Part shown: one piece after another, positions 8,321-9,928 of the stretch
Layout: each line of letters starts with the position of its first letter
How positions within the stretch are numbered: the first letter of the stretch is position 1
Assembly (NCBI GenBank): GCA_047611865.1
Contig: JBLFWS010000119.1
Location: 1-10,342 of the forward strand
Length of the DNA stretch: 10,342 nucleotides
From: Chlamydiales bacterium
Lineage (GTDB): Bacteria; Chlamydiota; Chlamydiia; Chlamydiales; JBDQID01
Direction: 5' to 3'
Notes under the pieces: generated by a model
The model's database searches: none
Seen by the model: only the letters and a program-made list of their open reading frames with translations
Told to the model about the DNA's origin: nothing
Translations under genes and position numbers: made by a program

Positions 8321-9928
8321 CTATTCCATAGCCCTACAAAAAACTTTTGAAACCCTTTCCGATAGCTGACATTGAAAGGGTTCATACTCTATCTGCTCTC
8401 CATCAAGAGTTATCAGCCCCCAAGGTGTTTTAGGGATAAGGCGGAAAGCCTTGGTTCTAATGCTGTGTACTTCAGGGCGGTTGACAAAAGAACCATCATC
8501 AAATCCCAGGAGAACTCTTGCCATCTTGTATACGGAAGCTATACGCCAGTTAGAAAGAGGGTTTTTGATGTAATGAATATGTATAAATCCATCGTTGAGC
8601 TTAGCGTCAGGTGCAGAGTGAAAATTATAAGAGCAATGCGAGGTATTGCAAGCATGTACCATTGAAAACTCCCCATCCACTTCCGTGAATTCCTCAGGCA
8701 AAGGATCCTTTAGTGAGGGCATATTCCGAGGCAGTTCTTTGTCTTCAGGCAAATAGGAAAGAGTTCCTTCATAGGATTTCATCTTCCACAAGCCGTATAA
8801 AGCTCCCAGCGTAAACCTTGCTCCGCCAAACCATCGAAATTTTTCGGAATAAATATCAAGGTCACTAACAAAACCCCAACTCACTGTCAAAAAGGAATAA
8901 TATTCGTGGTCCTGAGTAGAAACCTTAAAAATATCCATGGGCACTGTTTCGTTACGTCTGATAAGCTGTGCGGCCTCTTTTACCCCATAGTTCATTCCGC
9001 TTTTGTGTAATAGGCTCTTGGCCAAACCATTTCCACTACCACTTGGAACATGGCCTATGGGAATATCTATAGCTCTGGCATCATCATGCTCCATCAATCC
9101 ATGAACAAGTTCTGAAACACTTCCGTCTCCTCCCACAACAATGATCCCATCATAATCTATGATATGTTGATCTTTCGATATTGCCTCACTACAATGGCCA
9201 GCACTTTTGGTCAACAGTATGTCGGTCTGATAATCATCTTCTCCCAGGATCTCAGCTACTTTTTTGTAATAATCCTTTTCCCCTGTTTTACTTCCGCTAA
9301 ATGGATTGATCACTATAAGTAACTTTTGCACCCTCTCTTGATTTACTTTTTGGAACACGGCAGAAACAGCTTTTATCCCTTTAATGTCGATGCTTCCTTC
9401 CTTGAAGAAGTGAGAGAGAAGGTATTGAGCTTTTAGAAGCCCTGCCTCCGATGCGGTTTGCAAGCAATTCTGAGCTAAGCTGAGATTTTTCTCACAGCCT
9501 TCAGCGTTCACTAATTTACCAGCCAGTTGATAAAGCTCAACTGGACTCGCACTCTTCTCATATGACTTCATAAAAAGACCGTAAAACTCTCTTCCCTCAT
9601 AAGACTTTTGGAAGTTCAAGTGAGAGCCAAGATAAACAAAGTTATCGTCTGATAACTTATTCAGAACATAGTAGTGGATGTTTTCGACCCCATCAGCCAA
9701 ATCCTCGTTCGCACAAAATTGCGTCCATAATCCCATGGCCGCTAATCCATCATGAAAAGAAAGCTGCTTATCGCCGCCTTCCTTCATTACCAGAAGATAG
9801 TTCTTATCCATCAAGTCGAGAAAAGTTTTGCCTTTGAGAGAACATTTTTCATAAAGGGAAAGATCAGATGATTCGAGAGTACTGTCTGGATTAGGAACTC
9901 TAATTAAAAGATCAATGGACGAAGACAT
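8321..9928 (-). CDS. Eukaryotic-type sphingosine kinase (DAGK catalytic superfamily) with an N-terminal extension containing a Sel1-like repeat
   Basis: SphK motifs are all present: C1 LLIVINPFSG, C2 VVGGDGSVSELVHGLM, C3 PIGHVPSGSGNGLAKSL, C4 SFLTVSWGFVSDLDIYSEKFRWFGGARFTLG, YEGTLSYLP and C5 GLITLDGE. Start is placed at ATG 9928 (RBS AAGGAG at 9939-9934) rather than TTG 9964, giving 535 aa. Confidence 0.88.
   Translation of the reverse strand: MSSSIDLLIRVPNPDSTLESSDLSLYEKCSLKGKTFLDLMDKNYLLVMKEGGDKQLSFHDGLAAMGLWTQFCANEDLADGVENIHYYVLNKLSDDNFVYLGSHLNFQKSYEGREFYGLFMKSYEKSASPVELYQLAGKLVNAEGCEKNLSLAQNCLQTASEAGLLKAQYLLSHFFKEGSIDIKGIKAVSAVFQKVNQERVQKLLIVINPFSGSKTGEKDYYKKVAEILGEDDYQTDILLTKSAGHCSEAISKDQHIIDYDGIIVVGGDGSVSELVHGLMEHDDARAIDIPIGHVPSGSGNGLAKSLLHKSGMNYGVKEAAQLIRRNETVPMDIFKVSTQDHEYYSFLTVSWGFVSDLDIYSEKFRWFGGARFTLGALYGLWKMKSYEGTLSYLPEDKELPRNMPSLKDPLPEEFTEVDGEFSMVHACNTSHCSYNFHSAPDAKLNDGFIHIHYIKNPLSNWRIASVYKMARVLLGFDDGSFVNRPEVHSIRTKAFRLIPKTPWGLITLDGEQIEYEPFQCQLSERVSKVFCRAME

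Follow-up and report, generated by a model that had tools for sequence, protein, structure and literature searches.

Does an environmental chlamydia possess a sphingosine kinase of the eukaryotic type, and would such an enzyme act on the lipids of its host? The question is raised by a gene on the contig JBLFWS010000119.1 (10,342 nucleotides, referred to as the window throughout), which is the whole of contig C119 in a 3.59-Mb, 272-contig assembly of a Chlamydiales bacterium (GCA_047611865.1, labelled G000; estimated completeness 95.5%, contamination 2.5%). The gene, located at 8321..9928 on the minus strand, encodes a 535-aa protein that combines a Sel1-like repeat (SLR)-like N-terminal module with a kinase domain of the sphingosine kinase (SphK) type. 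The assignment of this protein to the eukaryote-type SphKs, and not to the YegS/DgkB-type kinases, is well supported by the profile, structural and phylogenetic comparisons described in the following sections. Taking its parts together, we lean cautiously toward the reading that it is a host-facing long-chain-base kinase of the SphK family in an environmental chlamydia, acting on host-derived sphingoid bases.

Gene Model, Fold and Motifs of the Kinase

The open reading frame (ORF) spans 8321..9964 of the minus strand as a 547-aa frame and ends with the stop codon at 8321-8323. Its first ATG, at 9928, is preceded by the Shine-Dalgarno sequence AAGGAG (9934..9939, minus strand) with a spacer of 5 nt, and the database record P0002 is a 535-aa form, equal to the length counted from this ATG; we therefore took the gene as 8321..9928. 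The first-pass annotation, made from the letters of the window, had placed the gene at 8321..9328. These limits hold for the kinase domain (residues 201-535, 8324..9328 on the minus strand); however, the gene continues upstream to 9928, and the 200-residue module ahead of the kinase (residues 1-200, 9329..9928 on the minus strand) had been overlooked.

The Pfam models DAGK_cat (E = 5.9e-25) and YegS_C (7.3e-07) match the protein, in agreement with a DAGK_cat N-lobe and a YegS_C-type C-lobe. Among the solved structures of the PDB, phmmer ranks human SphK1 first, with E = 4e-37 for an alignment that spans residues 213-534 in the numbering of the 547-aa frame, ahead of mitochondrial AGK (5e-16) and bacterial DgkB/YegS-like chains (2e-7 to 8e-6); all 11 NCBIfam bacterial lipid-kinase models that were applied stay far under their cut-offs (e.g., TIGR00147, 61 vs 118.65). 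The kinase domain was modelled by AlphaFold2 (AF2) from a 65-row alignment with a predicted local distance difference test score (pLDDT) of 93-98, and Foldseek superposes this model on SphK1 with a TM-score of 0.85-0.90, a root-mean-square deviation of 2.2-3.1 A and 28-30% identity, one superposition giving 0.89 at 2.2 A. AGK reaches a TM-score of 0.72, YegS 0.74-0.79 and DgkB-like chains 0.76-0.81. The similarity to human SPHK1 claimed in the first-pass annotation is thus far beyond chance, and its identification of a eukaryote-type SphK agrees with the PDB match, the fold, the C4 motif and the position of the protein in a SphK-type clade with 100/98 support.

All five conserved regions of the family were recognized in the alignments, namely C1 (NPxSG), C2 (T), C3 ((S/G)GDG...GSGN), a SphK-type C4 and C5 (DGE), where C1 to C3 follow the definition given in section 4 of PMC10243590. 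In the translation of the minus strand, we located NPFSG (9293-9307), the catalytic motif GGDG (9122..9133, residues 266-269 of the 535-aa protein), SGSGNG (9026-9043), the C4 motif WGFVSDLDIYSEKFRWFGGARFTLG (8804..8878), YEGTLSYLP (8747-8773) and LDGEQ with the C5 DGE (8393..8407). Every motif previously named for this protein was recovered in this way, although C4, which had been drawn over about 8804-8896, ends at 8878. The pattern WGxxxDxDIxSExxRxxGxxRF is found in the query and in each of the 14 other SphK-type rows of a 21-row alignment (chlamydial, giant-virus-like and eukaryotic rows, groups a and b, and P0188), and in its place the bacterial YegS/Bacteroidota-type rows (6 of 6) have a GxGFDA-type sequence. 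The segment WGFVSDLDIYSEKFRWFGGARF matches the SphK1 C4 residue for residue, including the second Asp and two Arg. According to the PDB alignment, equivalents are kept of the C4 residues that we take to be Asp178, Arg185 and Arg191 in the human SphK1 numbering. The Asp of GGDG is aligned with the Asp of SGDG in human SphK1, Asp81, which the cited parts of PMC10243590 and PMC9045371 present as the proposed general base. As judged from these alignments, the discriminating element of the family is C4; GSGNG is not SphK-specific, and GSGNGLA is also found in Bacteroidota and chlamydial YegS-like kinases, so that the contrast with a bacterial GTxNDFA, drawn in the first-pass annotation, fails for these rows.

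The comparison with characterized enzymes shows both shared and divergent features. Human SphK1 (PDB 3VZB/3VZC/3VZD/4L02/4V24) has the same two-lobe fold, the regions C1 to C5, the catalytic Asp and the DxD..SE..R..R pattern of C4; however, its C-lobe loop insertions are missing from the chlamydial protein, and it has no counterpart of the 200-residue N-terminal module. The dihydrosphingosine kinase dhSphK1 of P. gingivalis (PG1348) and the Bacteroidota and chlamydial YegS-like kinases share the DAGK_cat fold and the NPxSG, GGDG, GSGNGLA and DGE motifs, but they differ by a GxGFDA-type C4, and their identity to the query is 22-29% with E-values of 1e-15 to 3e-20 among the matches listed. According to the cited part of PMC9045371, PG1348 phosphorylates a sphingoid base; in our comparisons, this enzyme is represented by a relative from Porphyromonas somerae (L082), which we assumed to be equivalent.

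The protein could also be a kinase of this fold that acts physiologically on a different lipid, for example ceramide, diacylglycerol, monoacylglycerol or one peculiar to protists. The DAGK-like superfamily is known to shift substrates easily, as illustrated by the mis-annotated substrate of PG1348 (cited part of PMC9045371); C4 varies more than the other motifs and is believed to determine specificity (cited part of PMC10243590); and the identity to SphK1 is only 28-30%. On the other hand, all C4 residues aligned with sphingosine- and phosphate-contacting residues of SphK1 are kept, SphK1 is a better match than AGK by 21 orders of magnitude, and the functionally named relatives are all called 'sphingosine kinase', with the exception of one 'diacylglycerol kinase family enzyme'; for CERK, the PDB holds no structure for comparison. 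A different lipid substrate is therefore improbable in our estimation.

Residence of the Gene in a Chlamydial Genome

The window was found in three public runs labelled ice metagenome (X1, X2, and X3), which are a possible source of the assembly and thus count as independent assemblies, not as independent samples. A Logan contig of 9795 b spans 531-10325 in X1 (0 differences) and in X3 (3 differences), and the depth in X1 is even, at 59.6 from 691 to 10005. In X2, a contig of 4432 b covers 4633-9064; run X4 contributes short pieces only, and no RNA run was listed as containing the window. The first-pass annotation had asked for continuity between the kinase gene and the neighboring mscS gene, and contigs from the three runs bridge this junction (8310/8321), so that the contig is not chimeric at this point.

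Both ends of the contig consist of high-copy repeats of the same bin, with a depth of 2536 at 1-345 and 4 to 40 times the depth of the unique part. Positions 1-127 recur in 28 other bin contigs at 96-100% identity, positions 120-559, which include a fragment of a helix-turn-helix transposase (ORF 92-532, minus strand), recur in 4 other contigs, and the last 47 bases (10296-10342) recur in about 10. Ahead of the kinase gene, some 200 nt at 10100-10300 match about 15 other contigs, in either orientation and with 68-78% identity; this sequence has the appearance of a small interspersed repeat whose copies have diverged, and no tRNA or Rfam family was detected in it.

The composition of the kinase gene shows no sign of recent import. 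By tetranucleotide distance, the contig ranks 107 among the 230 contigs of at least 5 kb; the G+C content of the gene is 0.416 (GC3 0.396), and its codon-usage distance lies at the 2nd percentile when compared with 457 ORFs of similar length. The genome belongs to the same GTDB order as a Parachlamydiaceae metagenome-assembled genome (MAG), its own family contains one other genome (G001), and it encodes seven TLC nucleotide transporters, compared with none in any of 14 control genomes, and three FHIPEP (type III export) matches, all in accordance with the chlamydial origin proposed previously. The transporters and the FHIPEP matches also speak for an intracellular lifestyle.

The probability that eukaryotic or viral DNA was wrongly assigned to a chlamydial MAG here, or that the contig is a chimera formed at the mscS junction, is in our view close to negligible. 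What speaks for such an error is the short length of the contig (10.3 kb) in a 272-contig bin with an estimated contamination of 2.5%; against it stand the bridging of the junction in all three runs at even depth, the bin repeats at both contig ends, the typical composition, and the bacterial neighbors, among which RimO is matched at 536 bits, above the cut-off. Moreover, the closest genomic relative among the matches listed is flanked by dnaG and V-ATPase genes on a Parachlamydiaceae contig of 2.26 Mb.

Distribution and Phylogeny of the SphK-Type Proteins

Among 400 scored genomes of the phylum, 50 contain some match to the kinase at E<=1e-5, whereas the SphK type was found in only two, G000 and G229 (8e-83, 42% identity); the best match after G229 (2.5e-17) has a bacterial-type C4. 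The G229 gene lies in the Parachlamydiaceae contig mentioned above, together with genes for a rRNA methyltransferase-like protein and a PD-(D/E)XK transposase in addition to dnaG and V-ATPase. In the family of G229, the SphK type is present in 2 of 73 genomes, namely G229, where it is intact, and G415. In the latter ('Chlamydiae bacterium' MAG, contig C9; L029:4940-5960), the SphK-type gene is split in two frames by a frameshift inside C4, which represents either a pseudogene or an assembly error; a gene for a 697-aa leucine-rich-repeat protein is located upstream.

When 1.84 billion cluster representatives were searched exhaustively with HMMER, 7318 relatives were obtained at E<=1e-3, of which 431 score at E<=1e-30. 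The best are compact unnamed metagenome proteins with 43-45% identity, together with one 133-residue fragment at 67%; these are followed by long proteins, whose named members are eukaryotic sphingosine kinases. Organism names are attached to 4 clusters among the 30 relatives looked up. Genome and metagenome contigs were scanned with the pattern G[HI]IPxGSGNG, and the relatives reported from them are those among the matches listed; in viral contigs, a pattern was matched by 71 stretches, one of which encoded a relative. This compact SphK homolog resides on a giant-virus MAG contig of IMG/VR with 25% G+C (L193). Another compact homolog is encoded on a 5124-b metagenome contig with 22% G+C (L108), whose ORF is near-identical to the protein P0030 and whose neighboring genes encode eIF-1A, a U-box/leucine-rich-repeat protein, a CMAS-like methyltransferase and a dCMP deaminase. 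Judging by these homologs, giant viruses probably encode sphingosine kinases too.

Phylogenetic relationships were reconstructed first with FastTree for 218 rows, leaving out query duplicates, four fragments and rows shorter than 280 aa, and with IQ-TREE (LG+C20+F+G4 with posterior mean site frequencies, PMSF) for 99 rows, using a quick search and then a careful run; support is given as ultrafast bootstrap/SH-aLRT. The eukaryotes are represented by the proteins that most resemble the query; from the 158 such rows in the 'eukaryote' clade of the FastTree, 58 were hand-picked so as to represent its subclades, of which 13 have an organism name (animals, plants and oomycetes) or, in one case, derive from EukProt. 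The SphK-type proteins constitute a single clade of 83 rows (100/98) that includes the query, whereas 15 bacterial YegS-type rows, among them the PG1348/Bacteroidota-type kinases that act on the bacterium's own sphingolipids, form the outgroup (100/99). A grouping with YegS/DgkB, which would have spoken against the SphK type, is thus clearly not observed.

Within the SphK-type clade, the query is the earliest branch of a 13-row group of compact proteins (99/96) that further contains the protein of the Parachlamydiaceae MAG, the C-terminal fragment encoded by the split 'Chlamydiae bacterium' gene and 10 metagenome proteins; the three rows of known origin are all chlamydial. The sister of this chlamydial clade (95/95) is a 7-row giant-virus-like clade (98/94), in which evidence of viral origin exists for 2 of 7 rows and which includes L193 and P0030. 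Its members (L193 and the P0030/L108 group) are compact proteins of 288-331 aa with the same motifs; however, they share 28-40% identity with the chlamydial kinase and are encoded on contigs with 22-25% G+C. The 58 eukaryotic rows form a clade of their own (100/98), and the chlamydial protein, unlike human SphK1, branches outside it. The acquisition of the gene from a eukaryote, as suggested in the first-pass annotation, is therefore not shown by the tree, in which the chlamydial clade is sister to the giant-virus-like clade and stands apart from the sampled eukaryotes. The kinase might yet nest within the full diversity of eukaryotes, since the sampling may lack Amoebozoa, fungi and further protist groups.

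The rarity of the type (2 of 400 genomes) and the frameshifted relative in G415 are the points that would fit a gene transferred long ago that has since begun to decay or lost its activity. In the window, however, the frame is intact over 535 codons and preceded by a strong Shine-Dalgarno sequence, all catalytic motifs are kept, the three runs show 0-3 differences over 9.8 kb, and the same invariant residues are kept across the 13-row clade. We consider a relic very unlikely.

The N-Terminal Module

The first 200 residues comprise a Ser-rich disordered leader, a poorly modelled alpha/beta part and Sel1-like helices. Residues 1-43 have a pLDDT below 50, and the AF2 model shows helical pairs at low confidence. 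The last third of the module is a putative Sel1-like repeat, GCEKNLSLAQNCLQTASEAGLLKAQYLLSHFFKEG (9395..9499, minus strand), which matches many chlamydial Sel1-type ORFs and is helical in the model (pLDDT 62-77). Protein-atlas features of the module resemble Sel1 at 0.91, with 22 of 30 matches being Sel1 sets, which we treat as a lead only. No hydrophobic segment was found in the protein, and it is predicted to be soluble.

The only paralog of the module in the genome is the N-terminus of a 931-aa Sel1/TPR-like protein encoded on contig C72, with 31% identity (E = 4e-17); this paralog itself has a weak Sel1 match in Pfam (0.01, below the cut-off). The start of its gene (L027:2792-5587) overlaps the stop of the preceding ORF (L027:1287-2795), and the two are translationally coupled. 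The preceding ORF encodes a 502-aa protein with a bilobed hydrophobic segment of about 36 residues (residues ~102-137), as in Inc proteins, and may be regarded as a candidate Inc-like protein.

Elsewhere, relatives of the module are scarce. A word-based search of 5.8 billion proteins returned the protein itself only, and the matches of a profile search in the 400 genomes fall mostly on the Sel1-like part, with a few small Parachlamydiaceae ORFs that match the module weakly (E about 1e-5). The other full-length rows of the chlamydial clade are 341-407 aa long, and none of these 11 is long enough for an N-terminal extension of this size; the fusion of the module with the kinase therefore appears specific to this lineage.

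Sphingolipid Context and Proposed Role

The kinase gene is the only DAGK_cat gene in G000. The alpha-oxoamine synthases found in this genome are KBL (625 bits, cut-off 460) and a BioF-like protein only, and no serine palmitoyltransferase was found in G000, the corresponding models giving 180-305 bits compared with cut-offs of 500-670; therefore, the substrate of the kinase should be host-derived. Searches for ceramidases (PF04734 and PF05875) gave no match in G000 and none in the controls either, and hence are uninformative. Outside the window, at C212:2009-3841 on the plus strand (= L204:904-2739), the genome encodes a 611-aa homolog of sphingosine-1-phosphate (S1P) lyase, whose best PDB relatives are S1P lyases (5eud, 1.5e-51; human 4q6r, 8.6e-51; Legionella 4w8i, 8.6e-39); its counterparts among known systems are LegS2/LpSpl of Legionella and the eukaryotic SGPL1. 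Strong lyase matches (E<=1e-99) are present in 13 of the 400 genomes, which makes the lyase commoner than the kinase; the sister genome G001 has it as well (53% identity), whereas G229 and G415 have no strong match.

The closest precedent for such a gene set comes from Legionella pneumophila, whose eukaryote-like sphingolipid genes include, according to the cited parts of PMC6712060 and PMC3423634, a predicted and uncharacterised SphK (lpp2295) and an S1P lyase that is a translocated effector. L. pneumophila is an intracellular bacterium of protists that, like the chlamydia, encodes a SphK-like protein and an S1P lyase. It belongs to another phylum, however; Lpp2295 has its function assigned by similarity only (cited part of PMC6712060), and it lies outside our trees.

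In the mechanism that we propose for a host-facing kinase, the enzyme would transfer phosphate from ATP to the C1 hydroxyl of sphingosine or dihydrosphingosine derived from the host, as the bacterium is apparently unable to make sphingoid bases of its own. The N-terminal module would target the protein, most likely once the type III system has exported it, to a site or partner that faces the host, and the bacterial S1P lyase would cleave the kinase product, so that the pair could provide a complete exit route from sphingolipid metabolism. We favor a host-facing role because the predicted substrate is foreign and the protein is soluble with a disordered leader, because its repeat-type module recurs in a protein whose gene lies next to an Inc-like one, and because of the Legionella precedent; in addition, the kinase of G229 stands without any lyase and therefore has a use of its own. 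The idea of a shift in the balance between ceramide and S1P is plausible, while the presence of the lyase equally allows the destruction of sphingoid bases rather than the accumulation of S1P.

Several observations weigh against the host-facing role and limit our preference for it. The ATP-dependent phosphorylation of sphingoid bases is predicted from family membership alone. With 95.5% of the genome estimated to be present, the absence of serine palmitoyltransferase is unproven. The kinase and the lyase are encoded on different contigs, and both occur together only in G000 among the 400 genomes. As for secretion, the kinase gene converges on mscK, and its neighbors are housekeeping genes that do not form an effector island. 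Finally, residues 1-200 have no Pfam match at E<=0.1 and no Sel1 (PF08238) match at E<=1, and the module was modelled in two AF2 runs with low confidence (pLDDT 30-77, mean 54.9).

Alternatively, the enzyme may work inside the bacterium, where host sphingoid bases entering the cell would be phosphorylated and then cleaved by the S1P lyase without any secretion, serving either the removal of a membrane-active antimicrobial lipid or the supply of phosphoethanolamine and a fatty aldehyde as building blocks. The co-occurrence of the only DAGK_cat gene and an S1P lyase in one genome would fit this scheme, as would the lyase of G001, the one other genome of the family, the location of the kinase among housekeeping genes, the lack of a recognizable export signal and a codon usage fully typical of the genome. 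Sphingosine is antimicrobial. Against this scheme, G229 has the kinase without the lyase, 12 other sampled genomes have the lyase without the kinase, and the Sel1-like module, being common with the repeat protein beside the Inc-like gene, fits host interaction better. An intracellular role thus seems to us possible but rather doubtful, and we retain the host-facing kinase as the preferred reading.

Other Features of the Window

In addition to the kinase and the MscK-like gene, the window encodes RimO and, at 2791-4248 on the plus strand, an HtrA/DegP-like protease with a C-terminal PDZ_3 domain (3.2e-42), which scores below the cut-off for the bacterial Do family. A 662-aa ORF at 687-2675 on the plus strand contains an HRDVKGVN catalytic loop and a DFD motif; its match to the Pfam model Pkinase (2.5e-06) reaches 27.5 bits compared with a cut-off of 31.7, its best PDB match has an E-value of 8e-6, and it may represent a divergent eukaryote-like Ser/Thr protein kinase. 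Scans of the window detected no tRNA and no Rfam family. Around the kinase gene, there are no terminator-like sites and four promoter-like sites, compared with 4.7 expected, and a search for repeats in 9900-10342 returned none.

Implications for Chlamydiae and the SphK Family

According to the cited part of PMC12077188, chlamydiae take sphingolipids from their hosts. Eukaryote-like sphingolipid enzymes are already known in bacteria living in protists; what is new is a clade of chlamydial SphKs with a giant-virus-like sister clade, the attachment of an N-terminal module and the pairing of kinase and lyase in one genome. To our knowledge, chlamydiae have so far been described as users of host enzymes and not as owners of sphingolipid-metabolizing enzymes, and among the top results of our searches of the open-access literature, there was no report of a sphingosine kinase encoded by a chlamydia or a giant virus.

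On a more speculative note, chlamydiae and giant viruses might share a distinct and old compact SphK lineage that was swapped in protist hosts and not recently acquired from the genome of a host, with the fused lineage-specific module, serving in targeting, and the S1P lyase allowing the chlamydia to destroy host sphingosine irreversibly at the inclusion. We put this scenario forward tentatively, as one that we would not expect to hold in full; if true, the exit pathway formed by kinase and lyase would serve both as a defense against an antimicrobial host lipid and as a reset of the ceramide/S1P balance.

The chlamydial clade and its giant-virus-like sister offer a compact SphK, roughly 335 residues long, whose fold is predicted with confidence and which could serve enzymology, and the fusion to the Sel1-like module provides a handle for finding the host partner. 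The chlamydial and giant-virus-like SphKs add a further case of gene traffic among inhabitants of protists. A chlamydial SphK together with an S1P lyase in one genome would show that some environmental chlamydiae can themselves act on host sphingoid bases, as Legionella is thought to do.

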